A stretch of 41,251 bases of DNA from a virus (Duplodnaviria > Heunggongvirae > Uroviricota > Caudoviricetes): IMG/VR virus record IMGVR_UViG_2869976549_000005. The stretch is one strand, 5' to 3'. The translations under genes were made by a program, and so were the position numbers. Position 1 is the first letter of the stretch. Each line of letters begins with the position of its first letter. The notes under the pieces were generated by a model. It ran no database searches, was not told where the DNA came from, and saw only the letters and a program-made list of their open reading frames with translations. This document shows positions 727 to 36,200 of this stretch, in pieces.

Positions 727-786
727 CCTCACACAACCGCAAAATCGGTTGTCGGGATTGGCGTCTCGGATAACATCACAACGCAT

Positions 787-808
787 AGCCGCGTTTGCGG
801 TTTTTTTT
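787..808 (+). terminator. intrinsic terminator / attenuator in the leader (hairpin CCGCGTTTGCGG + T8)
   Basis: GC hairpin at 789-800 followed by TTTTTTTT at 801-808, ~70 nt downstream of the predicted start; preceded by a second hairpin CAACCGcaaaatCGGTTG at 734-751. Confidence 0.45.
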
Positions 809-968
809 GCGTTAAGCATTGCCACATTCGCATTATGGTGGGGCGTGCAGGGGCGGAGAAATCCGCGCCGGGTTTTGTGATGACCGGTTACGCCAACCCT
901 GTACGTCTCACCACCTCCCTGATTGGCGTCAGAGGTGGTGATCATCCAATTAATTGGAGTCATCACAT

Positions 969-6948: not shown

Positions 6949-9419
6949 AATCCCCCATCTGTTTTAAAAATGAAATCACCACCACCATCTGAACCGTTAT
7001 TAATATGAACACCATCACCACCGTTATCTTTCCACAAAAACATACGAATTCTTCCGTCTTCGTTGGCGAATGTAATGTGGTGGCGGTAATTACTTTTTAA
7101 TCTAAAATTGCTGCCATTAGATTCAATATCTTTATAAAGATGTAATCCTAACTCATCAATATGTCCGATGCGCGAACCATTTGAATAGAAGCTAATAATA
7201 CCATCTCCATCTTGCCTAAATCCGGTGTCGTTATCTCCCAGAACAATGGAGTTTTCACCCAGTGCGTTATCAGTAGCTCCAATAGCTAGACCTCCTTTAA
7301 TTTTGGCCCCGTGGCTGACAGATATAGCACCTGTTCTCAGATTTATAGCGAATGGCCTTAATGGGCCGATATTACCGTTTTCGCCTTGTCCTTCAGCCGT
7401 CGGAATGAAATGAAGAAAATCTTCTGAACGACGGAAAATTAGACCGAAGGTATCATTGAAAATTCGCAGCGCATTCACCGTGCCAATTTTCAGTTCTCCG
7501 GTCATTTTATCGCCGGAACGCTGAACGGCGTTACCAGCCTTGTTTACCGTTTCCTGTAAACCGAGGTATTCGATAACGGCAGCAACGGTCGATTTCGCAA
7601 GAATATCCCGCCCGACTTTTGTCAGGGTTGCCAGGCTGGCGACATCATTCCCCGTAAAATACGGAAACTTGCCTGCCGCAGTAGTAAGTCCGGCCAGCGC
7701 CGTCAGGGTGGCATCTTTCGGTTGCTTACCCGCAAGCGCGTTAGTCATGGAGGTCGCAAAATTCGGGTCGTTGCCCAGCGCCGCAGCCAGCTCGTTCAGC
7801 GTGTTCAGTGCATCAGGTGACGAATCTACAAGGGCGGCAATCGCAGCCATAACGAAAGCCGTGCTTGCGATTTGGGTATTATTCGTTCCCTGTCGCGCAG
7901 TTGGTGTTGTTGGCGTTCCGGTCAGTGCAGGACTATTTAAGGGCGCTTTCTTGTTCGTTTCACCCATTACCGCCTTAACCGCTTTTGGCGTTGCCGCCAG
8001 TGACTCGGAAGTGCTGTTGGTCGCACTGCTGAGCTGTACTATCCCCTTTTTCGTCGTGCTCGCATCCTCCAGCGCCACGGCGGATGCAATATCCTCTGCC
8101 CGTTTTGCTGCTGTCTCGGCGCGCGTTGCCGCGGATTCAGCAGCAACTTTGCTCTGAGATGCAGCCGTCGCACTGCCTGCCGCCTCTGATGCTTTCGTTG
8201 TTGCTGTCGTGGCACTACCTTTCGCTGCTGACGCTTGTCTGGTCGCCTCATCTTTTGAAGCAGACGCAGATGATGCCGATGACGCCGCTGAACTGGCTGA
8301 CGATGCGGCTGCTGCCTTAGAGGAAGCAGCATTGTCTGCTGAAGTCTTTGCATTTGTTTCAGAGGTTTTTGCTGCAGAAGCAGACCTCGCTGCTGCAGTG
8401 GCTTGCTCAGTGGCTTTGCCAGCCTTCGTTGTGGCTGTTGAAGCGGATGATGCGGCGCTTTCTGCCGATTTTCCGGCGGCGGTGGCACTGGCTGAGGCCT
8501 GCCCGGCTCTTGTTGACGCGGCACTGGCAGATAATGCAGCCGCTGTTTTTGAACCTGCCGCAGCTGAGGCGCTCTGTCCCGCTGCTGTTTCAGAAGACTT
8601 AGCGTTCGTCTCGGACGTTTTTGCCGCCTTCGCGGAATTTCCTGCCGCCGTTGCCGAGGAAGCTGCACTACTGGCACTTGATGATGCATTCGTTTCTGAA
8701 GATTTCGCTGCCTCTTTTGAGGCCGCCGCACCCCGTGCCGAGGTGGCAGCTTCTGACGCCTTCGTGGTCGCTGTGGATGCAGAAGTGGCTGCCGATTTTT
8801 GTGATGCTGCGGCATTCGTTTCTGACGTTTTCGCGGCACTGGCGCTGGTAGCTGCCGCGCTTTTTGATGACTCTGCAGCAGCACTTTTTGCTGCTTCACG
8901 GGCCTTTGTCGATGCCGTTCCTGCGCTGGAAGACGCTGACTGAGCCGACGACGCGGCCTGTCCGGCTGACGTGCTGGCGGCACGTGCTGAGGCTGCAGCA
9001 TCGGTTGCATGAGTTGCCGCCTCGCTGGCTGATTTTTTCGCGGCTGCCGTATTCTGTGCAACCGCGGAGGCGTTACGTGACACCTCTTCCACCATCTGCT
9101 CAAAGCGGCGCAGTGCCTCCGGTCGGACATCATCCTCCGTCATGGCACCGAGAAAATCATTCAGCGTACCTGGTCTGGAACCTTCATAGACGGTAATGGT
9201 CCCGGCATGTGAAGGCGGAAAACCTTCAACCAGCAGGGTGACGCTGTACTGACCATGCTCAACATCCATGCTGTAACGTCCGGCTTCATCCGGATTTTCA
9301 GAGGCCACCGTGTTCACCACCATCGTGCTGCTGGTTCGTCTGGCCTTCAGCACAATGGTGCAGTTCTGTACTGGTTTTCCTGTGCCATCTTTAAGCACGC
9401 CAGAAATTTTTACTGTCAT
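6949..9419 (-). pseudogene. stf: lambdoid side tail fibre protein Stf, 5' portion (823 codons), interrupted by IS600
   Basis: N-terminus MTVKISGVLKDGTGKPVQNCTIVLKA... typical of Stf; long Ala/Ser/Thr-rich repeat region; ORF stop at 6930 lies inside IS600. Confidence 0.85.
7551..7576. other. gix/hix-type inversion crossover site (right), inside stf at the constant/variable junction
   Basis: TTCCTGTAAACCGAGGTATTCGATAA, inverted relative to 3369-3394 and close to the Mu gix sequence. Confidence 0.7.
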
Positions 9420-9570
9420 ACTTTTCCACCAATAAAAAAAGCCCGCAGCAGTGACGCCACGGGCTTCAGGACAGTGTAACTTTACGTTTCCTCAAACGCA
9501 GTTCACCCCATAAGGTGGATGAACCTGCGTATCATAACAATATTTACAGAAGATAAATCGGCGTCTGTTG

Positions 9571-10170
9571 TCAGATACGGTATCCGATACCAACAATAAA
9601 TGCATCCGTTCGCCAGTCACCACTACCGGAACCTTCATAAGCAAGGTCAATGGTCACGGATTCGGTCGGGTTAAACTGCACGCCAGCCCCCCACGCCAGA
9701 GACGTGTTGCTGTGGCGACCGTCATCACTTCCGGTCAGCACATCGTGCGTTTTCCCCTTGTTGTCAGTTACGCGGAGATAATCCCCGGAGAAAGTCGACA
9801 CACGGCTGTAAGCCACACCCACCATCGCATACGCGCTGAACCATTCATTCACGCGTACAGACGGCCCCGCCATCACGCTGAACCAGCGGTTACGCACGGA
9901 ATCTTCATGCCAGCGGGTATCGCTGTAGTGCGTTTTTTGCTCATCCTCAGCATTGGCATAACTGAAGGACGTAATCAGCCCCAGCGCGTCCGTAAACTCA
10001 TAACGGTATTTCACGTTAATCCCGTTCAGATTATCGCTGCCGGGAGCGTTCGTACGGGCATGAAGATACCCCGCGCTCAGTGTGGACTGATGTTCAGACG
10101 CCCATGCAGGCGCACCGGATACGGACAGACAGATGGCTGCGGACAAAATGGCTGCACAAACTTTACGCAT
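9571..10170 (-). CDS. lom: Lom-family outer membrane protein (Ail/PagC/OmpX beta-barrel)
   Basis: Signal peptide MRKVCAAILSAAICLSVSGAPAWA, C-terminal ...GIGYRI; position between J and stf as in lambda. Confidence 0.85.
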   Translation of the reverse strand: MRKVCAAILSAAICLSVSGAPAWASEHQSTLSAGYLHARTNAPGSDNLNGINVKYRYEFTDALGLITSFSYANAEDEQKTHYSDTRWHEDSVRNRWFSVMAGPSVRVNEWFSAYAMVGVAYSRVSTFSGDYLRVTDNKGKTHDVLTGSDDGRHSNTSLAWGAGVQFNPTESVTIDLAYEGSGSGDWRTDAFIVGIGYRI

Positions 10171-10195
10171 AATTACCTCTCGCTTTTCTGCAATA

Positions 10196-10222
10196 AAAAA
10201 GGCGCCATTTCTGGCGCCCGTA
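10196..10222 (-). terminator. intrinsic terminator between J and lom (minus strand)
   Basis: Minus-strand GGCGCC-agaaat-GGCGCC hairpin followed by TTTTTTTAT. Confidence 0.5.
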
Positions 10223-10237
10223 TATGGGTTATAAAAT

Positions 10238-13200
10238 TCAGCTGATACTGATGCCTGCGGTGGCTTTCTTCATCACCACAACCAGCAAATCGCTGATACT
10301 TGCTGTGGGATACCAGTTATTCACCAGCCATGCTGACACCGAAAACTCCAGCGTCATGTGGCCGCGACCAGCTGGCATATCAATAACACCACTGTAAATC
10401 AGCGTATTATCCAGCGCGGTACGGTTATAAATTTCAGCACCGTTTTTCCGTACTATCAGGCGGCATGACGAATAAATATCGTTATTCTCCCGCTCATGTT
10501 TAGCGCCGCTGAATGCCACCGCCGGAATAACAATTTGCCTGTCAAAAGGCTGATCGTCATAAATCCTGACGGTAATGGTCCCTGATGGCCACCGCTCCGG
10601 TGCCCGGGAGTCCCGCGGAAAAGCCTTACCCACTGTTTTGACTATATCGCCTTCAATCTGGTTGGCTGACAGTTTCCCCTTAATCTGACAGTTCTCATTA
10701 ATTGTGACATTGTTGAGCGTCCCGGCGTTCGCATTCACACTGCCACTGATATCTGCATTTTTAGCGGTCAGTTTTCCGTCCGGTGTCAGGGAAAATGCCG
10801 GAGGATTACCGCCGCTGGTAATGGTGGGAGCCGTCAGGCGTTTCAGGAACACGTCGTTCATGAATATCTGATCGCCCTGACCAACAAACATCGGCTTTGT
10901 GTTGCCATTCGCAGGATTAATCATCGCAATCCTGTCTGCCGCCAGCAGCACCTGACTCTGCATTCCTGCTGGCGTATTCTCAATACCGGCACCGATACCC
11001 GCAATATAAAGGCGTCCGTCCTTCATCTGTTGCAGCTTCACAGCCCACATGCTGTTCAGATTATTATTTGTATCAACCTGAACCTTCTGTATCTGCTGGA
11101 TTGCCGCACTCTGGTCTTTCAGTTTCTTATTGACAGTCTGCGTGATTTCATTGCTGACATCCGTAATGGACGTCCTGATTTCAGCCAGGTCAGGCGCAAG
11201 CTGACCGTTATCAATCTGCGTCCACAGCTCCTGAGCCAGATGTGTTTTCCCTATCTCTCCTTTGAAAAAATCCAGGTAACCTTCCGCATCATCGCTCGCC
11301 CGACCGACAGCCTCCACGAATGCCGATTTGCCAACGGTGTTCACACTGCGAACGTAAAAATAATAATCATGGCCCGGTTTGATATTGATACTGGCGGCTA
11401 TCCAGTACAGCGCCGTGCCAAGATAGCGGGCGCTGGTTTCAACCTGCCTGATATCCGCAATCCGCTTTTCCGAGAACCAGAACTCAAACTGTACCGTCGG
11501 GTCATAAACGGCAAGATGCGGCGTTGCGGTTATCTGAAAATAGCCCGGCGTCAGCTCAATCCGCGACGGTGCTGCCGGTGCGGCAATCCGGAAGGTGGTG
11601 GTGGCAGGTTCACCCTGCTGGCCATAGCTGTTTATCGCCCGCACCGTCAGGGTGTATTCCCCGAGCGGCAGGCCGCTGAAACGGTGCTCCGTGTCTGCGG
11701 TGATGGCGGTGGTCACCAGTCTGGCATCCGTTCCCTTACCACTGGTCAGGCGCAGACTGAAGCGCACACCCTTCACCACCCGCGGCGTGTCCCATTTCGC
11801 CTGCGCCAGATACTGGCCGTCAGGTGCTGCACTGCCGGTGGGATGACGCTGTTCAGGGAACCTGACTGCGGCTCAAAGCGGGCACCGTTATCCACGATGG
11901 CTTCTTTTTCCAGTACGTGCTGCACCGCCGTGATGGCAAAGGTGCCGTCCGTGTTTTCCCGGACGGAGACACAGCGGAACAGGCGACGGCGCAGTGACGG
12001 CAGGGAGAGTCCCCACACCCCGTATGTCTCCACACCATCAGGCAGGGTACTGACCTGTATCCGGTCCGGCGCGGGGTGTTCGGTGATGTCCACACTCACC
12101 GGCTTACCGCTGCCGTTAATCAGGTTCACCGTGGCGGCACCGGTCTCCGGAAGTGTCACTTCACGGTCCAGCGTCAGAGTGCGGGTGGCAGCATCAATGG
12201 ACAGGACACGTCCGCCGGTCAGGGTCCCGGCATAGTCGTTATCACAGATTTCAATGATGTCACCGGGTGTGTGCCGCAGCCCCTGAGACCCGAGCGTGAA
12301 ATCCACCGTCTGCGTTTCCAGCAGTTCGGTCTTTATCACCCACAGTCCGGCACGGTGGGCCTGACCGCGGCTGGTACAGCCGAACGCGTCCATCTTCAGC
12401 AGGTTGCGTCCGTAGCGCAGTATGGCTTCCGGGTCTTCCACCAGTTCCGTGGAGGTCTGCCAGCCGTTCTGCGGGTCGGTATAATTCACCTCCACCGCCG
12501 TGTGCCGGTCCTTCAGGGCACTGAAGCTGTAGCGGAAACCCACGCCGTTATCATCCACCACCACATCGCTGTTGGTGTACGGCCACACCACATCCGACGG
12601 GCGGTCCTGAACAAACGTCAGCGTCTGGCCGTTCCATACCGGCATACAGCGCATCGCCGAGCAGAAATCACTGAGCACGTCCCATGCCTTACGCTGTTGT
12701 GCCAGGTACGCATTGAAGGTCATCCGCGGCTCGGTCTCCCCGAAACTATCCGGGACCGTCTGGTCGCAGTACTGCCCGATGGCATACAGCGCCCACTTGT
12801 CCACATCCGCCGCCCCCAGACGTTTTCCCATGCCGTAGCGCGGGTGAGTCAGCATGTCCCACAGACACCAGGCCGGATTGTTGCTGTATGCCGGTTTCAG
12901 GCTGCCGTCCCAGATACCACTGTACGTGCGTTTTTCCGGGTCATAGTTTGACGGCACCTGGATGATGCGACCGCGGATATGGTAGTTCACCGTCATCTGC
13001 TGGCCGCCGAACTGCTCCGCATCCACCTGCAGCCCCACAATGGCCGTGTTCGGGTAGCACTGTTTCACATCGATGATTTCGGTGTATGACGACCACAGCG
13101 TCTTATTCTGCAGCTGGTCCGTGGTGCTGTCCGCTGTCTCCCGGACCATCCGGATGTTAAAAGGACGGGGAGGCAGATTATCCAGAATCACCGACGCCAG

Positions 13201-13689
13201 AAACTGCGAGGTGGTCTTGCCGTTAATGGTGACATCCTTTTCTGTCACCCAGTTACCGTTACGCTGTAACTGAATCAGCAGGCGGACGGATGTCGGGTTT
13301 CGGTCACCCTTTGACGTGGTCTGCACCAGTGACTGCACCCCGAAGGTAACCCGCAGGCGGTCAATGTTCGCGGACGTAATGGTGCGCGTCACCGGTTTTG
13401 CCTTCGTCACTTCCACGCCCAGTCCGGTTTCAGCACCGGAGGACTCAAAGCCTTCCGGTGGTGTCTGCTCCTGCTCCCCGGCGCGTCAGACCGCCGTCAC
13501 ACCGTGTATCACGGGATTACCGTCCGTGTCCGTCAGCGGGGTTTTGTTCACCAGGATACTCTGCAGTCCCTTCACCGGACCTTCTATCAGTCCCTCACCA
13601 ATCGCATCAATCACGCTCATCATCTGCGTGGATTTGAGATTATCCTTCGCCTCACGAGGCGTGTGTGCCTTACCGCCACCTTTTCCCAT
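10238..13689 (-). pseudogene. J: tail tip / host specificity protein J, inactivated (in-frame TGA plus frameshifting deletion)
   Basis: Three ORFs (13689-13486, 13416-11773, 11779-10238) together align with lambda J; in-frame TGA at 13486-13488; frame change near 11790 where ~26-28 nt of lambda sequence is missing. Confidence 0.85.
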
Positions 13690-13894
13690 ACAGCCTTCCC
13701 CTGAATAAATTAACCGCCACTTGCCATTCCGTACAGAAGTCGGATATCCTTCGCCCGAAAAGCATGAAACACATTTCTGCCATGCTAAAGAGAAACCCCG
13801 GTATCAGCAGATACCGGGGTTTTCTTTCATGCCCACCGATAATCCTGTTGGTTAAAACCGGTAATGGCATAAAAATTCTGAATATCTTCACATT

Positions 13895-13922
13895 TTCACA
13901 AACTGACTGTGGCGCGTATAAT
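13895..13922 (+). promoter_or_regulatory. candidate plus-strand promoter (TTCACA - 16 bp - TATAAT) inside the I-J intergenic insertion
   Basis: Perfect -10 TATAAT at 13917-13922, -35-like TTCACA at 13895-13900. Confidence 0.3.
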
Positions 13923-13987
13923 TTCTCTGCGTTAATTTTTTTGTCGTGATATAAGAATAATTCCTTACACTTAATCTTCGTAACTCT

Positions 13988-14026
13988 CCCGCAGTTCCTG
14001 TCCGCGATCACTGCGGGATTTTTTTA
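13988..14026 (+). terminator. plus-strand intrinsic terminator (8-bp-stem hairpin + T7)
   Basis: CCCGCAGT...ACTGCGGG followed by ATTTTTTTA; ~95 nt downstream of the candidate promoter. Confidence 0.4.
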
Positions 14027-14032
14027 TTCTTT

Positions 14033-14713
14033 TTACCCCTGCCGCCCGATAACCACGACCTTTCCGCCCCCGCCTTCATCACGGGTGCTGATGTCCTGGG
14101 ATATACGGCGGGAGCCAACCAGCATTTCCCCGTAAGGCACCGGCATCGGGTTCCCCTGGGCAATCATGTTATCCAGTGAGGAAAAGTACGTGTTCTGTCT
14201 GCCGTTATCCGTTGCGCGGTAATCCGGTGTTTTTGCCTTCGGGGCCAGCATCTGGGCCACACCGCCCAGAATCATGCTGGCTCCAAGTGAAAACAGCATC
14301 GTGGTGGCAGAAAAACCACCGGCTGCCAGGGCTGAACCCCATAACGCCATTGATGCCCCGGCAGTGAAGAAAGAGCCCACGATGGCTGCCGCCCCCAGCA
14401 CAATCTGCAGTCCACCCTTTCCGGCCCCGGCCAGTCGCGGCACAATGTGGATGACCGTTCCCTCACCCAGCTGTTCGTGAAGACGGGCGTACACCGCCTC
14501 CGGTGCCGTGTCATAACCGGCAATACGTATCTGGTACCAGCCTTCGTTCATCTGACGGCGAAAGCCCGGCATCTGCATCGACAGGGCGCGAATGGCTTCC
14601 GCTGCCGTGTTCACATACAGGCTGAGGCGGCGGCCAAATCGTTGTAAATCCCCGTGAAGGCAGATGCGTGCCAGTGGCGGTGACGCCAGACTGAATGCGT
14701 TCGTCGTTGCCAT
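14033..14713 (-). CDS. I: tail assembly protein I
   Basis: 226 aa, Gly/Ala-rich hydrophobic C-terminal half, position between K and J. Confidence 0.85.
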   Translation of the reverse strand: MATTNAFSLASPPLARICLHGDLQRFGRRLSLYVNTAAEAIRALSMQMPGFRRQMNEGWYQIRIAGYDTAPEAVYARLHEQLGEGTVIHIVPRLAGAGKGGLQIVLGAAAIVGSFFTAGASMALWGSALAAGGFSATTMLFSLGASMILGGVAQMLAPKAKTPDYRATDNGRQNTYFSSLDNMIAQGNPMPVPYGEMLVGSRRISQDISTRDEGGGGKVVVIGRQG

Positions 14714-15354
14714 TTTTCGGAATACCTCTCCCGTTTACTCAGTTGTTCAGGCAGATGGTGAAGCAGCTCACCGTTGCCGCAGTAAATGGCGGCATGGTTC
14801 GGTACCGAAGCACCAAAGCAGCACAGCAGAATATCGCCCGCCTGTGCAGAGGACAGGGGCACCCGGTAAAAGCCGGTGACCGCCATATTGTCCAGGTAAA
14901 GGTTCTGACCGTTGCGCCACCAGTCATCCTCGCGATGAAAATCCGGCATTTCAGTCCCCGCCAGATGATAAGCATCCCGGAACAGCGTGTAACAGTCCGT
15001 CACCCCGTGCTCAAAGCGCCGTCCTGTCAGATGTGGCACACAGCGGAATTTGTGAATGTCACCCCGGCAGACCAACCACCAGGGCAGTGCGCTTTTTATC
15101 TGCAACCGCCGGTCAGCCTCGCTCAGCCAGGGCAGCCCACCGGGATGACTGTGGACCAGTGCCACAATCTCCCCCTGCATCTCTGCCCGCAGCCAGTCTT
15201 CCGGTGCGATACGAAAATACGCCTCCGGCTCTGCGGAAATATTCACACAAGGGATATACCGCTCCCCCTCCGGCGTGCTTATCACGAAGCCGCACGACTC
15301 CGCAGGCGCACACCGCCGGGCATGTGCCAGAATCGCTGATTCAGTCTGTGTCAT
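14611..15354 (-). CDS. K: tail assembly protein K (NlpC/P60-type peptidase domain)
   Basis: MTQTESAILAHARRCAPAESCGFV... matches lambda K; start 15354 chosen over the longer upstream-extended ORF. Confidence 0.85.
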   Translation of the reverse strand: MTQTESAILAHARRCAPAESCGFVISTPEGERYIPCVNISAEPEAYFRIAPEDWLRAEMQGEIVALVHSHPGGLPWLSEADRRLQIKSALPWWLVCRGDIHKFRCVPHLTGRRFEHGVTDCYTLFRDAYHLAGTEMPDFHREDDWWRNGQNLYLDNMAVTGFYRVPLSSAQAGDILLCCFGASVPNHAAIYCGNGELLHHLPEQLSKRERYSEKWQRRTHSVWRHRHWHASAFTGIYNDLAAASACM

Positions 15355-15364
15355 AAACCGGGAT

Positions 15365-16063
15365 TTACTGCGAAAGTTTATTAATGGAAAGGAAACCGCC
15401 AAAATTGCCGACATTCCTGCGCAGTTCACACCCGCGCATGCACTTGCTGCATCTGTCCTTACGGATATCCGTGGTGGGGTTGTCGAACTCATCCGCCACC
15501 GCAGGACCGTTATACCCGCATTCATCTCCCCGGTAATCCCACATACAGGTGTTCGCCAGCATGATGCGACCGGGAAACAGCGCCCCGTCCGTCTCGGTCG
15601 GTGTAGCCAGCACAAACGAGGCCGTCATGGCTGTCAGCTGCGACATCTGCTCCACCACCCAGCGGTCACTCAGCTCCTGCTCCGGGTCCGCCTCCGGATT
15701 GCCCGCAACGAAATTCACCGCATCCAGAAAACGGGCATACACCCGGCGGCGGACCACCGTGGCCCCCACCAGACTCTGCAGGTCTTCCGCCATCCCGGTG
15801 ACCAGACCGAACAGATTGGACACCGTCAGCGACGGTCTGGCACTGCTGCCCCGGCCGTTCATCTCAAAGCCGCTGCCGTCAATCGGGTATGCCTCATACT
15901 TACGCCCCTGCCAGGTGACCGGCTCCCCTTTTTCATTCAGCTCATTACAGAAAAAATACCGCTCACCACCCTGTACCGTCAGGTCGATTTCCCAGAGTAC
16001 CACCCGCGGTGACTGCTCTGACTTAACCGACTCGTTCAGACTTTCTTCGCGAATATCCTGCAT
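15365..16063 (-). CDS. L: minor tail protein L
   Basis: MQDIREESLNE...FGGFLSINKLSQ, near-collinear with lambda L. Confidence 0.9.
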   Translation of the reverse strand: MQDIREESLNESVKSEQSPRVVLWEIDLTVQGGERYFFCNELNEKGEPVTWQGRKYEAYPIDGSGFEMNGRGSSARPSLTVSNLFGLVTGMAEDLQSLVGATVVRRRVYARFLDAVNFVAGNPEADPEQELSDRWVVEQMSQLTAMTASFVLATPTETDGALFPGRIMLANTCMWDYRGDECGYNGPAVADEFDNPTTDIRKDRCSKCMRGCELRRNVGNFGGFLSINKLSQ

Positions 16064-16392
16064 CAGTTCACCACCTGCTTAAACTCCGCGCTGAACTCAA
16101 CGCGCAACATCCCGACCCGCGCAGACCACCCGGCACAGGTCACCTTTATCTGCCGGTATGCATAGGGTGGCTTCCACAAAAATGCCTTCCAGCCACCGTG
16201 CTCTGCCAGGAACGCTTCCAGATGCCGGGCCTCCTCCCGGGTCACGGAAAGCGTCACCCTGTATGTTTTCAGGTCAGCATTCAGCCCTGCCGCCATACGC
16301 TGTGAGTACCCGTCACCAAAACGCACTTCACGCACCGATGGCTGCGAGTTCACCTCCATATCCGGCTTCACTTTCCAGCGAAAGGTTTTCAT
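16063..16392 (-). CDS. M: minor tail protein M
   Basis: 109 aa, position and sequence like lambda M. Confidence 0.85.
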   Translation of the reverse strand: MKTFRWKVKPDMEVNSQPSVREVRFGDGYSQRMAAGLNADLKTYRVTLSVTREEARHLEAFLAEHGGWKAFLWKPPYAYRQIKVTCAGWSARVGMLRVEFSAEFKQVVN

Positions 16393-18962
16393 CCACCGCT
16401 CCCTGATAACATACCGCCATCACGCAACTGCAGCCGGAGTTCATCCTGTGCCCCCTTGCGGGCCATCTCATACACCGCTTTCATCAGCTGCGGCCCTGCC
16501 CGCCCGTTGGGGCCGTCGTTCTGAATCACCACGTGATTGTTCTGATTAAAATTAATGCCTTCCGCCCGCCGCATCTGCGCCGGACTTCCGGCACCGCCGA
16601 CATAACCACCTTCCGCATAGCCCCGCATCAGGCGGTACAGATTGCCGACACCAATCCGGCTGGTCGCCTCCTTCGTGAAGACAAACTCCCCGCGATGAAC
16701 AATCCCCGCAGGTTCATATTTACCCCCCGTCCCCGTAAATCCCCCGGTCGCGAAATGGAAGTTCGCCGCCGCAGCCTGAATGGCCGTCCCCGTGGAGGCA
16801 GACGCACCACCACCGAAAGCACCGCCAATGGCGCTGCCGATACTCCCGACTATCCCCACCATCGCCTGCTTCAGAAAAATCTCTGTCAGCATGGACAGCA
16901 CAGAACGGGTGAAACCACGCCAGTTCTGTTCGCTGCCGATCAGCATCGCTGCCATATTCTGTGCAATACCGTCAAAGGTCTGCGTGGCCGCGTTTTTAAC
17001 CTGCGAAAAACTGTCCGTCGCACTTTCCGCCCACTCGCCCCAGCCGGACTTCATCCCGGCCATCCAGCTTCCACGAAGCTGCTCCTCCGCAGACCAGGTG
17101 TTCTTCAGTGCAGATGTGGCCTTCGCCAGCGCAGCCGGATTATCACCGTACACCTCACGAAGGCGCTGCTCTTCCGACTCCCGCTGCGCCTGACGGTCGG
17201 TGAGTCCGCGGGCTTTTGCGCTGATTGCCGCCTGCTTCGCGCTCTGCTGCTGTTCAAACCGCGCCGCCTGCTGTGCCAGCTCATTCAGCCGTTTCTGGTG
17301 TTCAATCTTGTCGCCCAGCTCAGCCAGCTGGCGTTTGTACTCCAGCGTTTCTTTCTCATGGGCCAGCAGGGATTTTTCCTGCTCAGATAACTGCCGTTTC
17401 GTGGCGGCCTCTTTCAGGACCACATACTGATTTTCCGCTTTCCATAAATCACGGCGCTGCTGGCTGATTTTTTCATTCGCACCGCTGTGCTTCTCCAGCG
17501 TCCTGAGCTCAGTTTCAAGCGCCAGCAGGGCTGCATGCGCCTGGTCTTCCTGGCGCTCACCGGCAGACACCTTCACACCGGACGGCTTTTTCTGCGTCGA
17601 CTCATAATCCTTTTTTGCCGACGCCATCAGCGTGTTGTAATCCGCCTGCAGGATTTTCCCGTCTTTCAGGGCCTTATTCAGCTCTTCCTGCCGGGCGGTA
17701 TATTTCTCCAGTGGCGTCAGCAGGCGCTCATACGCCTTCTGCGCCTCTCCGGTATACTTCAGCTGTGACGACTCACGCTCAGCCCTGTCCCTTGCCGCCA
17801 GTTCACCGGCTTTTTCCATATCCGACTGCAGCGTTGCCGCTGCCAGACCCAGACGGGCATTTTCCCGGTCATCCCATGCGCCCTGAAGGTTGGCCCGGAA
17901 AGAGGAGGTTTTACCGCGGCGCTGGCTCCGACTCTGGTACCACTGCCATTTTTTATCCGCCTCATCAAATGCCTTCTGCGCACTGGCGAGCATATCCGCT
18001 GAGGATTCCGGACGACCGATATCCAGAATGGCATCCCACATCGATTTGAATGCCTTCCCTGTTTTATCCGCCCAGGTCTCCAGTGTTCCCATGTTTTCTT
18101 TCAGGCGACGGGTCTGCTCATCAAAGCCTTTCGTGGCGATATCGTTCGCCGCCTGCAATGCCCCGGCCTCGTCTCCGGAACGCTGCAGCTGTGCAACATA
18201 CGCAATCTGCTCTGCCGTCACGTTACGGAACTGGCGCGCCATCGCCATCAGTCCCGACGTCGGGTCAGTGGTCAGCTTCCCGAAGGCTTCAGCGACTTTA
18301 TCCACCTCCACACCGGATGCAGACGCAAAACGCGCGACACTCTGGTTGATGGCATCAAACTGTTCACCACCACGCACACCGGCATTCACCAGGGCTGCCA
18401 GTGACTCTCTCGCCTGGTTAAACGTCAGCCCTGCTGCCTGCCCGGCTCTTGAGAGAGTCAGCATACGATCGGCAGTCAGTCCGGACTGATTACCGGAAAG
18501 AACCAGGGTTTTATTAAACGCTGAAAGCGTGGAATCTCCCTGGTACCAGGCGTACACCAGTGCACCTGTCGCCACCGCCAGCGAGGTGACCCCGACCATC
18601 GGCAGGGTGATCGCATCGGCAAGCCCCCTGAACATGGGGATCATCCCGCCGAAGGAGTCCTTCACCTGACCGCCCTGTTGCAGCAGGATCAGCCAGGGAT
18701 TCTGACCACCGGCAAGCTGCGTGGCGATATCCGTAAACTGTGCGGGCAGGGTTCGCATGGCCGCTTTATACTGCCCGACGGAAATCCCGGCTTTTTGTGC
18801 AGCCAGCGCCTGGCGGCTCAGGCCCTGTTCAACAGCACTGGCGGTTTTTCTGGCGTCGGTATCCAGACCTGAAAAATGACGCCTTACCCGGCTCATCTGC
18901 TCATCGAAACGGACAGCATCCAGACTCAGGTCAATAACAAGATCACCAACCGGCTGGGACAT
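16389..18962 (-). CDS. H: tail tape measure protein H
   Basis: 857 aa, coiled-coil-rich middle, Gly-rich C-terminal region; position as lambda H. Confidence 0.85.
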   Translation of the reverse strand: MSQPVGDLVIDLSLDAVRFDEQMSRVRRHFSGLDTDARKTASAVEQGLSRQALAAQKAGISVGQYKAAMRTLPAQFTDIATQLAGGQNPWLILLQQGGQVKDSFGGMIPMFRGLADAITLPMVGVTSLAVATGALVYAWYQGDSTLSAFNKTLVLSGNQSGLTADRMLTLSRAGQAAGLTFNQARESLAALVNAGVRGGEQFDAINQSVARFASASGVEVDKVAEAFGKLTTDPTSGLMAMARQFRNVTAEQIAYVAQLQRSGDEAGALQAANDIATKGFDEQTRRLKENMGTLETWADKTGKAFKSMWDAILDIGRPESSADMLASAQKAFDEADKKWQWYQSRSQRRGKTSSFRANLQGAWDDRENARLGLAAATLQSDMEKAGELAARDRAERESSQLKYTGEAQKAYERLLTPLEKYTARQEELNKALKDGKILQADYNTLMASAKKDYESTQKKPSGVKVSAGERQEDQAHAALLALETELRTLEKHSGANEKISQQRRDLWKAENQYVVLKEAATKRQLSEQEKSLLAHEKETLEYKRQLAELGDKIEHQKRLNELAQQAARFEQQQSAKQAAISAKARGLTDRQAQRESEEQRLREVYGDNPAALAKATSALKNTWSAEEQLRGSWMAGMKSGWGEWAESATDSFSQVKNAATQTFDGIAQNMAAMLIGSEQNWRGFTRSVLSMLTEIFLKQAMVGIVGSIGSAIGGAFGGGASASTGTAIQAAAANFHFATGGFTGTGGKYEPAGIVHRGEFVFTKEATSRIGVGNLYRLMRGYAEGGYVGGAGSPAQMRRAEGINFNQNNHVVIQNDGPNGRAGPQLMKAVYEMARKGAQDELRLQLRDGGMLSGSGG

Positions 18963-27486: not shown

Positions 27487-27721
27487 GAATCCTCCCGGCC
27501 GGGATAATATTGTGAGTAAAATAAGGAGCGGGCTGAAGTCCGGAAGTTACAGGACAATGGCAGAAGAGAGACGACAGCCCGCAATTCGAAAAAGACCGCG
27601 CAGTTGCGCAGAGTGATTACTATGGGGTATTATTCGCCAGCTGAAATATTACTTCACGTTTTATTGTTTATTCCTTGCCGCCCGCGTCTCCCAGCGCGGG
27701 CTTTTTTTGCCCACAAGAAAA

Positions 27722-27950
27722 CCCCTCCGGAGAGGGGCTAAAGCCGCGTATCTGTATCATCATGCACATGGTGCCGGGTGCCTCCCGGTGAGTTCAGCCC
27801 GGTGCCACTAAACCCGCGTCATTCTCGTTTTGATAATCAGAGATTATACCGTCACCAGTCGCCCCTCCGCTCAGGGGGATTCACCATGCGAAATTTTTTT
27901 AACAAATGCCCAGTCTGACAGGCAACTGTCAACTTACTGAATTGTGAGCA
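27722..27950 (-). repeat. structured non-coding element, paralogue A
   Basis: Shares hairpin blocks with 29475-29685: CCCCTCCGGAGAGGGG, TGCCGGGTGCCTCCCGGTGA, CGCCCCTCCGC-CAGGGGGATTCACCATGC, AACTGTCAAC, CTGAATTGTGAG. Confidence 0.6.
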
Positions 27951-29241: not shown

Positions 29242-29474
29242 AAAAAGAACAAATGGTAGTGTCCGCTATTGCCAGTACACCTCAGGATAGCGGTCATGTG
29301 ATGCCGGTTTCCCGGTAACTCAGCACCGGTATCTGAGTCAACGTTTTCTCTACTGGGTCATTTCCGATACGCCCTGCCTGCTGACAGGCTTTCATCACAT
29401 CTGAAAATATAGCACCCTGACTGATACTGTAGTACCTAAGGTTCCAGAAACTGTGATGTATCCGGCACAGAAAA

Positions 29475-29685
29475 GCCCCTCCGGAGAGGGCTGGAGAGTG
29501 GCGCTATGTGCCATTGCATGATGCCGGGTGCCTCCCGGTGAATTCAGTACCAGCACCTGAATCCGCGATTATCCCATATACCTACTCGCTGATTGCCCCT
29601 CCGCACAGGGGGATTCACCATGCCAGTTTCTTTTAACAAACTCCCCGCAAAACAGACAACTGTCAACCGTCTGAATTGTGAGACA
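29475..29685 (-). repeat. structured non-coding element, paralogue B
   Basis: See 27722-27950; conserved hairpins with compensatory loop differences. Confidence 0.6.
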
Positions 29686-29728: not shown

Positions 29729-29805
29729 TGGCGCGTTGTACTGGATTCGAACCAGTGACCGATTGCTTAGAAGGCAATTGCTCTGTCCGGCTGAGCTAAC
29801 AACGC
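29729..29805 (-). tRNA. argO: tRNA-Arg (anticodon UCU), 77 nt, CCA encoded
   Basis: Cloverleaf deduced by hand: acceptor GCGUUGU/ACAACGC, anticodon loop CUUCUAA, T-loop GGTTCGAATCC. Confidence 0.8.
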
Positions 29806-29843: not shown

Positions 29844-31181
29844 CATAAGCGCTAACTTAAGGGTTGTGGTATTACGCCTGATATGATTTAACGTGCCGAT
29901 GAATTACTCTCACGATAACTGGTCAGCAATTCTGGCCCATATTGGTAAGCCCGAAGAACTGGATACTTCGGCACGTAATGCCGGGGCTCTAACCCGCCGC
30001 CGCGAAATTCGTGATGCTGCAACTCTGCTACGTCTGGGGCTGGCTTACGGCCCCGGGGGGATGTCATTACGTGAAGTCACTGCATGGGCTCAGCTCCATG
30101 ACGTTGCAACATTATCTGACGTGGCTCTCCTGAAGCGGCTGCGGAATGCCGCCGACTGGTTTGGCATACTTGCCGCACAAACACTTGCTGTACGCGCCGC
30201 AGTTACGGGTTGTACAAGCGGAAAGAGATTGCGTCTTGTCGATGGAACAGCAATCAGTGCGCCCGGGGGCGGCAGCGCTGAATGGCGACTACATATGGGA
30301 TATGATCCTCATACCTGTCAGTTCACTGATTTTGAGCTAACCGACAGCAGAGACGCTGAACGGCTGGACCGATTTGCGCAAACGGCAGACGAGATACGCA
30401 TTGCTGACCGGGGATTCGGTTCGCGTCCCGAATGTATCCGCTCACTTGCTTTTGGAGAAGCTGATTATATCGTCCGGGTTCACTGGCGAGGATTGCGCTG
30501 GTTAACTGCAGAAGGAATGCGCTTTGACATGATGGGTTTTCTGCGCGGGCTGGATTGCGGTAAGAACGGTGAAACCACTGTAATGATAGGCAATTCAGGT
30601 AATAAAAAAGCCGGAGCTCCCTTTCCGGCACGTCTCATTGCCGTATCACTTCCTCCCGAAAAAGCATTAATCAGTAAAACCCGACTGCTCAGCGAGAATC
30701 GTCGAAAAGGACGAGTAGTTCAGGCGGAAACGCTGGAAGCAGCGGGCCATGTGCTATTGCTAACATCATTACCGGAAGATGAATATTCAGCAGAGCAAGT
30801 GGCTGACTGTTACCGTCTGCGATGGCAAATTGAACTGGCTTTTAAGCGGCTCAAAAGTTTGCTGCACCTGGATGCTTTGCGTGCAAAGGAACCTGAACTC
30901 GCGAAAGCGTGGATATTTGCTAATCTACTCGCCGCATTTTTAATTGACGACATAATCCAGCCATCGCTGGATTTCCCCCCAGAAGTGCCGGATCCGAAAA
31001 GAAGAACTAACTCGTTGTGGAGAATAACAAAAATGGTCATCTGGAGCTTACAGGTGGCCATTCGTGGGACAGTATCCCTGACAGCCTACAAAACGCAATT
31101 GAAGAACGCGAGGCATCGTCTTAACGAGGCACCGAGGCGTCGCATTCTTCAGATGGTTCAACCCTTAAGTTAGCGCTTATG
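29844..31181 (+). mobile_element. IS186 (IS4 family), 1338 bp, inserted at a GGGG-N7-CCCC site with ~12-bp target duplication
   Basis: Termini CATAAGCGCTAACTTAAGGGTTG...CAACCCTTAAGTTAGCGCTTATG; GGGACTTGAACCC duplicated on both sides. Confidence 0.9.
29893..31173 (+). CDS. IS186 transposase
   Basis: MNYSHDNWSAILAHIGKPEELDTSARNAG... 426-aa ORF. Confidence 0.9.
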   Translation: MPMNYSHDNWSAILAHIGKPEELDTSARNAGALTRRREIRDAATLLRLGLAYGPGGMSLREVTAWAQLHDVATLSDVALLKRLRNAADWFGILAAQTLAVRAAVTGCTSGKRLRLVDGTAISAPGGGSAEWRLHMGYDPHTCQFTDFELTDSRDAERLDRFAQTADEIRIADRGFGSRPECIRSLAFGEADYIVRVHWRGLRWLTAEGMRFDMMGFLRGLDCGKNGETTVMIGNSGNKKAGAPFPARLIAVSLPPEKALISKTRLLSENRRKGRVVQAETLEAAGHVLLLTSLPEDEYSAEQVADCYRLRWQIELAFKRLKSLLHLDALRAKEPELAKAWIFANLLAAFLIDDIIQPSLDFPPEVPDPKRRTNSLWRITKMVIWSLQVAIRGTVSLTAYKTQLKNARHRLNEAPRRRILQMVQPLS

Positions 31182-31251
31182 GGACTTGAACCCCGCGCAG
31201 CCAGCTTCGAAGGCTGGCGCTCTTTCCTGATGAGCTAATGGCGGTATGTGA

Positions 31252-31327
31252 TGGTGGCCCTTGCTGGATTTGAACCAGCGACCTGGCGATTATGAGTCGC
31301 TCGCTCTCACCACTGAGCTAAAGGGCC
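31252..31327 (-). tRNA. ileZ: tRNA with anticodon CAU, ileX/ileZ-like (tRNA-Ile2 type), 76 nt
   Basis: GGCCCUUUAGCUCAGUGG...anticodon loop CUCAUAA...GGUUCAAAUCC...CCA; resembles E. coli ileX rather than initiator or elongator Met. Confidence 0.7.
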
Positions 31328-35833: not shown

Positions 35834-35989
35834 TTACTCCTCAGGTTCGTAAGCTGTGAAGACAGCGACCTCCGTCTGGCCGGTTCGAATTCGTACCTCG
35901 CAGAGGTCTTTCCTCGTTACCAGTGCCGTCACTATGACGGTTAAACAGATGACGATCAGGGCGATTAACATCGCCTTTTGCTGCTTCAT
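35834..35989 (-). CDS. hok: Hok/Gef-family type I toxin (51 aa; RelF/HokD-like)
   Basis: MKQQKAMLIALIVICLTVIVTALVTRKDLCEVRIRTGQTEVAVFTAYEPEE; AAGGAG RBS; in-frame upstream extension to 36046. Confidence 0.85.
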   Translation of the reverse strand: MKQQKAMLIALIVICLTVIVTALVTRKDLCEVRIRTGQTEVAVFTAYEPEE

Positions 35990-36200
35990 AGCCTGCTTCT
36001 CCTTGCCTTTCGGCACGTAAGAGGCTAACCTAGATTTGCCGTTCATAGATTGAGCCTCAGATTAATGTTAAGCGTCTTGCCGGACGCGTAATGTTAACTG
36101 GGGCTTTTCTCTATCTGCCTTTTGGTGTTCATGCCTGAGACAGATAGCCTCAAGCACCCGCTGCAATTCTACTTAACTCTCCTTTTCCCGCAAACCGTTT

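Follow-up and report, generated by a model that had tools for sequence, protein, structure and literature searches.

The window analysed here is a stretch of viral DNA of 41,251 nucleotides (IMG/VR record IMGVR_UViG_2869976549_000005, Caudoviricetes) that carries the tail module of a lambdoid prophage, in which tail genes I and J are separated by an intergenic gap of 343 bp (13690-14032). We consider it highly probable that the part of this gap next to I, at about 13866-14027 on the plus strand, is the gene for a trans-acting small RNA (sRNA) that would depend on Hfq, a function argued by analogy with its relatives, and that it represents an sRNA moron, in the sense in which the term was used by Tree et al. 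(2014, PMC4104026), set between I and J. As judged by sequence comparison, PasB of enteropathogenic Escherichia coli (EPEC), EcOnc22, EcOnc23 and EcOnc24 (EcOnc22-24) of enterohaemorrhagic E. coli (EHEC) and the window allele are one family, a unification that is new here, if incremental. PasB, EcOnc22-24 and sRNA morons are all already known, and the window adds to them an uncharacterised, widespread and divergent allele.

A compact predicted transcription unit in the I-J spacer

The cassette is framed by two signals on the plus strand. A predicted sigma-70 promoter at 13895-13922 joins the -35 element TTCACA (13895-13900) to the -10 element TATAAT (13917-13922) across a 16-nt spacer, with 11 of 12 consensus positions matched, and presumably acts as such. 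A Rho-independent terminator follows at 13988-14025 on the same strand, with the stem CCCGCAGT (13988-13995) / ACTGCGGG (14010-14017) and then seven Ts (T7) at 14019-14025. A first-pass annotation, made from the letters of the window, had described both elements, and they are found exactly where it placed them: the TTCACA-16-TATAAT promoter on the plus strand and, about 65 nt past it, the 8-bp stem with T7. The terminator stem begins 65 nt past the -10, and the terminator ends 8 nt short of the stop codon of I on the opposite strand (14033-14035). Taken alone, neither kind of signal is significant, since consensus scans of the window returned 3 promoter-like sites against 1.0 +/- 0.9 in shuffled sequences and 3 terminator-like sites against 1.7 +/- 1.2. 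The promoter/terminator unit stands above chance because both of its members are conserved across at least 34 alleles (at least 120 viral contigs) and hundreds of genomes. The promoter, specifically, is nearly invariant in strain E2348/69, phage ASU11, PhiR5_1 and at least 120 IMG/VR loci.

The predicted sRNA occupies 13929-14025 on the plus strand, as delineated by a covariance-model match, by alignment to PasB and by its folds. A primary transcript starting at G13929, the position set by the -10 element, would measure 97 nt, and this RNA is homologous to the detected sRNAs PasB and EcOnc22-24; both points support the earlier suggestion of a moron-like insertion encoding a plus-strand RNA of about 95 nt. 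Within it, the tract AAG-AAU-AAU at 13953-13961, an (A-R-N)x3 repeat, is a candidate for binding to Hfq at its distal face, as suggested by the analogous ARN motifs of Tree et al. (2014). The CU-rich core UCCUUACACUUAAUCUUCG that follows at 13962-13980 is a candidate seed: it is largely unpaired in the centroid fold, it coincides with a semi-conserved, allele-specific block of the family alignment, and its counterpart in strain Sakai is the target region of the Northern probe for EcOnc22/23/24. The PasB seed has likewise been placed directly upstream of the terminator (Zhu, Shabalina & Storz 2026, bioRxiv 10.64898/2026.05.13.724894). The core of the window allele also contains UCCUUA, which resembles the anti-Shine-Dalgarno sequence, and ribosome-binding sites are therefore plausible targets.

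Directly upstream of the -35 lies a CRP-like site, TCTGA-N6-TCACA (13877-13892, plus strand), with one mismatch. Such sites number 4 in the window against 1.4 expected, which is not significant alone, and both half-sites are retained in the EcOnc22-24 copies of Sakai despite the loss of the -35. As a weak lead, the site fits the higher expression of PasB in lysogeny broth (LB) than in Dulbecco's modified Eagle medium (DMEM).

Protein-coding explanations of the spacer fared poorly. The open reading frames (ORFs) of the gap, of 113 and 66 aa on the minus strand and 94 and 44 aa on the plus strand, were rejected as genes, none of them matching a Pfam or PHROG family (best E value 0.095), and these searches bear out the initial view that the spacer holds no convincing ORF. 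The predicted RNA has no ATG, and every frame opened by one of its GTG or TTG codons closes within 3 codons. It had been stated beforehand that a protein-coding gene at this site in relatives would speak against an RNA gene. RefSeq annotates nothing in the spacer in any of the genomes listed, and the 66-aa 'hypothetical protein' found there in the record of phage ASU11 is an unsupported annotation.

Kinship with PasB and EcOnc22-24

PasB (E2348CN_0006) is an 83-nt sRNA of prophage PP6 in EPEC O127:H6 strain E2348/69 (Pearl Mizrahi et al. 2021, PMC8550237, Table S6). It maps to the minus strand of NC_011601 at 1466343-1466261 and was detected by Northern blot (probe AATCCCGCAGTGATCGCGGAGCT) and by RIL-seq, which sequences ligated pairs of interacting RNAs; its stability is Hfq-dependent, with log2 fold changes of -6.79 and -2.39 in the EPEC hfq mutant, and its level is higher in LB ('non-activating') than in DMEM (PMC8550237). 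RIL-seq assigned it 37 partners, of which 30 are coding sequences (CDS) or 5' untranslated regions (5'UTRs) and 0 are sRNAs, with PasB as the second RNA in about 99-100% of the chimeras (PMC8550237). In the E2348/69 genome, PasB sits between an I-type 'tail assembly protein' (ending at 1466255) and gpJ (starting at 1466496), antisense to both tail neighbours and with its 3' end 5 nt from the I stop. When the two spacers are aligned, the promoters are near-identical, the first transcribed bases and the 3' half of the terminator are identical, and the body differs; of the 23 positions targeted by the PasB probe, 20 are matched in the window, at 13998.

The homology of the whole RNA was captured with a covariance model built from 13 alleles, among them PasB, the commonest PasB variant and the Sakai EcOnc22 copy, with the window type excluded. 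In a search of the window the model matched 13929-14025 (plus strand) over its entire length (model positions 1-94 of 94), with 59 bits and an E value of 6.2e-12. The sole other match in the window, at 27640-27708 (17.4 bits, E 0.046), is weak and involves the terminator only. Searched at 13500-14200, Rfam 15 offers no family for the sRNA locus, whether at gathering score or with E<=10 allowed. The weak Rfam matches in this interval (STnc310, CopA-like and others) were set aside, as they arise from a hairpin at 13796-13830, and the exact terminator sequence was not found in the literature search.

EcOnc22, EcOnc23 and EcOnc24 belong to prophages Sp15 (Stx1), Sp14 and Sp11, respectively, of EHEC O157:H7 Sakai (Tree et al. 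2014, PMC4104026, Table S2). All three crosslink to Hfq in vivo, giving Hfq peaks in crosslinking and analysis of cDNA (CRAC), and EcOnc22 yields a Northern band of about 85 nt and is listed as 'Destabilised' in the hfq deletion (PMC4104026). We find that the three CRAC peaks fall in the 240-bp I-J gaps of Sp15, Sp14 and Sp11, on the strand antisense to the tail genes, and that these three gaps are identical in sequence and hold a PasB-family cassette with the common terminator and a GUUAAUCUUC core. The first 23 nt of the EcOnc22/23/24 probe (GGGAGAGAACGATGAAGATTAAC...) are exactly complementary to the RNA body directly upstream of the terminator. On the current RefSeq version, the probe site is found about 128 nt to the right of the published peak coordinates. 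Presumably this offset reflects a length difference between NC_002695.1 and NC_002695.2, which we take to be 128 bp on an assumed length of version 1; it is the match of the probe that provides firm evidence. In the literature searched, PasB and EcOnc22-24 are not linked: the 'homologues' note for PasB in Table S6 is empty, and EcOnc is not mentioned by Zhu et al. (2026, bioRxiv 10.64898/2026.05.13.724894).

Distribution and mosaic variation of the family

Of the 5426 complete E. coli genomes, 1662 have the whole spacer, 800 the window-type RNA (about 15%, with 613 records at least 99% identical) and 956 the E2348/69-type PasB (about 18%). The exact spacer is carried by, among others, ATCC 25922, the uropathogenic E. 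coli (UPEC) clone D i2 and i14, CE10, VR50 and ML35, and every phage record with the cassette is of an Escherichia or Shiga toxin (Stx) phage. A scan of species-representative genomes with a 19-nt promoter word gave 12 matches, in which the cassette was seen beyond E. coli only in E. albertii and in two short contigs labelled Asaia and Streptomyces. These contigs, one of 546 bp assigned to 'Asaia platycodi' and one assigned to 'Streptomyces flavalbus', carry E. coli prophage sequence and are probably contamination; the other nine matches, from unrelated taxa, are taken as chance matches of the 19-nt word.

The published PasB census, conducted with a word size of 28 and a query coverage above 75%, covered Escherichia and Shigella (Zhu et al. 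2026, bioRxiv 10.64898/2026.05.13.724894). When the window is searched with the 83-nt PasB, no match arises at word size 28, as the two have no 28-nt word in common, and word sizes of 11 and 7 recover only the 25-nt terminator. Because a word-28 search cannot find the window allele, the stated methods imply that the published census most probably omitted the alleles of the window and Sakai types. Censuses based on BLAST probably undercount the family, which a covariance model would remedy.

Variation within the family is concentrated in a few segments. Scanning IMG/VR with a 23-nt promoter word yielded at least 120 loci with at least 34 distinct alleles of the transcribed region. Among the alleles listed, the promoter, the transcribed start UUCNCUGCGUUA (with the predicted +1 at its G), a run of six to nine Us (U6-9), an ATCTT core and the U7 tail are near-invariant, and the outer terminator stem CCCGCAG/CTGCGGG with its U run is invariant in all of them. 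In 35 of the 35 alleles examined, a run of three to seven ARN repeats stands 25-32 nt ahead of the terminator and immediately precedes the CU-rich core. The 5' body, the core, the linker and the terminator loop are variable. The core reads UCCUUACACUUAAUC in the window, UCCUUCACAUUGAUC in PasB of E2348/69, UCCUUAACAUUGAUC in the commonest PasB variant, UCCAUAACGUUAAUC in Sakai and UCUCUAUAGUUAAUC in other alleles.

These variable segments have been shuffled at close range. In under 100 nt, each of the two 5'-body types is joined to two or more types of terminator loop. The module on the J side of the cassette also comes in two forms, a 'long' one of 188 nt (window) and a 'short' one of 85-86 nt (E2348/69 and Sakai), and the four combinations of long and short modules with the two body types occur in 24, 41, 26 and 17 loci among the matches listed. 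Modules and bodies are thus freely combined, and the locus is therefore mosaic at a scale of tens of nucleotides. It is conceivable, and we put this forward tentatively, that the locus works as a seed-swapping cassette, with prophages recombining short body and seed segments between two invariant anchors, the promoter on one side and the terminator with the I stop on the other, so that each lineage would direct a differently targeted Hfq-dependent sRNA from the same slot. If this were true, the family would be about twice as widespread as reported and EcOnc22-24 would fall within it.

In a few loci, insertion sequence (IS) elements interrupt the sRNA promoter or the long module. One of them, with an ORF starting MTKNTRFSPEV and presumably akin to IS629 (IS3 family), sits between the -35 and the -10 of the sRNA promoter in IMG/VR and Asaia-labelled contigs and constitutes a natural knock-out. 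A second, whose ORF starts MNKKTKRTF and which we take to resemble IS911, interrupts the long module in one locus.

Proposed mode of action and alternative explanations

The organisation of the cassette suggests how it might operate. Transcription from a sigma-70 promoter of its own (13895-13922), which does not depend on the phage late promoter, would produce the RNA in the lysogen, as Northern blots show for the EPEC and EHEC relatives, and would halt at the terminator (13988-14025), 8 nt before the I stop, to give a product of 84-97 nt. As shown for relatives, this RNA would bind Hfq via its 3' hairpin and U7, and probably also via the (ARN)3 tract at 13953-13961. The unpaired CU-rich core (13962-13980) could then pair in trans with mRNAs of the host and of the accessory genome, probably at or near their ribosome-binding sites. 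The window allele combines the promoter and terminator of the family with a different body and seed, and its target set should differ because its core differs from those of PasB and EcOnc22.

Several points weigh against this interpretation, or at least against its details. The function ascribed to the window allele is wholly transferred, by analogy, from relatives whose presumed seed differs. Of these relatives, PasB has no reported target motif, RIL-seq-derived seed positions having been given only for PasA and PasD (Zhu et al. 2026, bioRxiv 10.64898/2026.05.13.724894), and the only other paper containing 'EcOnc22' gives its function as unknown. The likeness to the anti-Shine-Dalgarno sequence is not general either, as UCUCUAUAG takes the place of the UCCUU core in some alleles. 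The RNA fold is just modestly more stable than those of shuffled sequences (z -2.1 to -2.7), its stability being essentially that of the terminator. Finally, the 5' end is uncertain: the -10 element predicts 97 nt, as opposed to the 83-85 nt or so of the Northern blots in relatives. The published 5' end of PasB, which rests on read coverage and on the size of the band (Pearl Mizrahi et al. 2021, PMC8550237), maps to window position 13942, at the end of the U run, and would make the RNA 84 nt long. The mismatch may stem from RNA processing or a different start, or else from an approximate PasB annotation.

The RNA is convergent with I and ends 8 nt from its stop, and it could instead act mainly in cis, pairing with the late polycistronic mRNA, whose I-J intergenic part it complements fully, or opposing late transcription from a head-on promoter, with RNase III cleavage or transcriptional interference tuning I and J or silencing leaky expression in the lysogen. 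The confinement of the cassette to the I-J junction in all loci examined speaks for such a role, a fixed slot being needless for a purely trans-acting RNA. We nonetheless regard it as unlikely. The first-pass annotation had spoken of a candidate antisense RNA, which holds for the orientation only: the RNA (13929-14025) covers neither the coding sequence of I (stop at 14033-14035) nor the ribosome-binding site of J (start at 13689), which is more than 230 nt away, and the complementarity it offers is intergenic only. A cis duplex is always perfect, whereas the hypervariable, mosaic body and seed between fixed flanks display the pattern of changing trans targets; PasB itself behaves as a trans-acting RNA, with 37 partners on Hfq in EPEC, and the sRNA gene of the window is intact although J is already dead.

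A different kind of trans activity, that of an anti-sRNA or sponge like AgvB and AsxR, which would titrate a core Hfq-dependent sRNA or compete for the distal face of Hfq, appears improbable to a greater degree. The architecture is reminiscent of these RNAs, as a variable 5' part is joined to a conserved 3' part and ARN motifs are present, and the element is of the same kind, a moron of lambdoid prophages. The RIL-seq partners of PasB, however, comprise no sRNA and 30 CDS/5'UTRs, the Rfam models of AgvB and AsxR find no match at the locus, the GcvB-target motif CACAACA is absent, and the cassette lies in the tail region, not downstream of PR'. Least probable of all, and in our judgement very remote, is that the cassette is a relic without function, in which sequences resembling a promoter and a terminator are carried along by a decaying prophage. 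The prophage is indeed defective, with a nonsense mutation and a 22-bp deletion in J, the consensus matches alone are not significant, and natural IS insertions split the promoter in some loci; but promoter, terminator and ARN tract are intact here and identical to the commonest allele, found in hundreds of genomes, and close relatives are abundantly expressed and Hfq-bound.

Genomic setting of the cassette

The I-J spacer interrupts an otherwise tight operon. On the minus strand, the tape measure gene (16389-18962), M (16063-16392), L (15365-16063), K (14611-15615) and the tail assembly gene I (14033-14713; Pfam Lambda_tail_I, E 6.3e-17) form a lambda-type tail module in which M, L, K and I abut or overlap one another, the I-J gap being the exception. 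Gene I is convergent with the sRNA gene and is annotated in RefSeq relatives as a 582-nt version that shares its stop with the I of the window; the tail tip gene J (10238-13689, minus strand) starts at 13689 with MGKGGGKAHTPREAKDNLKST. The GC content drops to 0.385-0.43 within the gap from 0.55-0.63 on either side, and the gene coordinates together with this drop bear out the original description of an AT-rich spacer of about 340 bp. The spacer (13690-14032) comprises the long J-proximal module (about 13690-13865) and the sRNA cassette (about 13866-14027), the boundary being set by the alignment to the E2348/69 spacer and by phage matches that begin at query position 177-180.

The most conspicuous feature of the J-proximal module is a strong hairpin at 13796-13830 with U-rich runs on both strands (-29.9 kcal/mol, z -4.4). 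It had been noted at the outset as a second hairpin with a U-tract accompanying the promoter/terminator pair; the structure is real and strong, but it lies outside the sRNA cassette, in the J-proximal module, and the consensus terminator scan of the window did not list it. Read on the minus strand, that of the tail genes, it becomes a terminator-like hairpin upstream of J. Analogous sense-strand hairpins with U-rich runs, differing in sequence, stand upstream of J in the 60-bp gap of lambda (AAACCGCC-UGCG-GGCGGUUU UGUCAUUU), in PP6 of E2348/69 and in Sp15 of Sakai. Hairpin variants of the short module show a compensatory change of C:G to U:A, and one IMG/VR locus lacks the hairpin stretch through a 47-bp indel between TTTCT repeats. 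Going by these sequences, the hairpin upstream of J looks like a conserved, Q-readable terminator or an mRNA-end structure at the I-J junction; the literature search returned nothing relevant on a terminator between lambda I and J.

In 1442 E. coli records the long module (13700-13862) shows 99% identity or more, and a sensitive blastn search returned no divergent relatives of it, unlike the polymorphic sRNA body. Besides the large hairpin, it contains a small one, GCATG...CATGC, and a weak plus-strand promoter, TTGCCA-18-TATCCT (13721-13750), and could, from its sequence, encode a second plus-strand RNA of about 75 nt (about 13757-13832) or form a structured J leader. EcOnc10/11/12 were considered as products of this module and ruled out, their site being in the lysis region of Sp10.

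The prophage itself bears marks of inactivation. Codon 68 of J (13486-13488) is changed from TGG to TGA, and compared with the intact J genes of SK1144 and ATCC 25922 a stretch of 22 bp near 11823 is deleted; for 9400-14100, no match in a complete genome exceeds 98.3%. Unless the sequence contains errors, the prophage is therefore defective, whereas its sRNA gene is intact. An intact sRNA gene beside an inactivated J fits an element that is kept for the host or lysogen and not for virion production, and suggests selection at the level of the host.

The prophage is dense in non-coding RNA genes. At Rfam gathering score it contains isrK followed by the C4 antisense RNA at 733-918 (plus strand) and, on the minus strand, two copies of STnc100 (27709-27918 and 29463-29652), sok (35984-36159) and three tRNAs (29732-29805, 31178-31238 and 31255-31327). 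STnc100 is related to PasD (Zhu et al. 2026, bioRxiv 10.64898/2026.05.13.724894). A plus-strand terminator within 27640-27708, GCCCGCG...CGCGGGC with T7, is convergent with the 3' end of the STnc100 copy at 27709-27918, and the interval may mark another convergent sRNA pair of the kind described by Tree et al.

Relation to known systems

The present analysis does not overturn the current understanding of prophage-encoded sRNAs, but extends a known class. It adds a likely Hfq-dependent sRNA gene that RefSeq leaves unannotated, that is absent from Rfam and that resides in about 15% of complete E. coli genomes, including extraintestinal pathogenic E. coli (ExPEC) and ATCC 25922. More generally, a family in which a fixed chassis carries a variable seed provides a natural allelic series for the retargeting of host regulons by horizontally acquired sRNAs.

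PasB, EcOnc22-24 and the window cassette all lie between I and J, antisense to the tail genes, and end within a few nt of the I stop, and their homology of sequence and structure spans the whole RNA; the window allele, as predicted from its sequence, also has its own sigma-70-type promoter and a Rho-independent terminator with a U tract. With PasB in particular, the promoter, the first 13 or so transcribed nucleotides, the U run and the terminator are near-identical, and in both an ARN tract precedes a CU-rich core. Identity over the RNA is nevertheless only about 73%: the 5' body (UGUCGUGAUAUAAGAAUAAU vs UGCCCGAGUAACAAAAACAAC), the seed core, the linker and the terminator loop differ, and the window cassette adjoins the 188-nt long J-proximal module, whereas the PasB locus has the short one of 86 nt. 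EcOnc22/23/24 likewise lie in the I-J spacer antisense to the tail genes and have the same terminator, an ARN tract and an (A/G)UUAAUCUUC core, but the Sakai copies possess a degenerate -35 (TCCGGC), an AATAAT -10 and another 5' body.

AgvB and AsxR (Rfam RF02702 and RF02703) resemble the window RNA, as it is predicted, in being short Hfq-binding RNAs on morons of lambdoid prophages, in which the 3' part is conserved, the 5' part varies and ARN motifs occur. They differ from it in lying downstream of PR' and the stx region, in measuring 51-60 nt and in sequestering GcvB or FnrS; an identity of the window RNA with either was ruled out on the grounds of this location, this length and the lack of an Rfam model match.

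As regards the moron class at large (Juhala et al. 2000; e.g. lambda bor and lom), the cassette conforms to it as extra DNA of lower GC content between late genes that are otherwise nearly adjacent, furnished with its own predicted promoter and terminator. The first-pass annotation had proposed a comparison of I-J junctions, and this supports the assignment: the gap of lambda spans 60 bp and is without the cassette. Morons are expressed from the prophage, and by analogy the window RNA would be too. A moron typically encodes a protein that benefits the lysogen; the window element, with no credible ORF, encodes an RNA, and it is in this product that it departs from the class.

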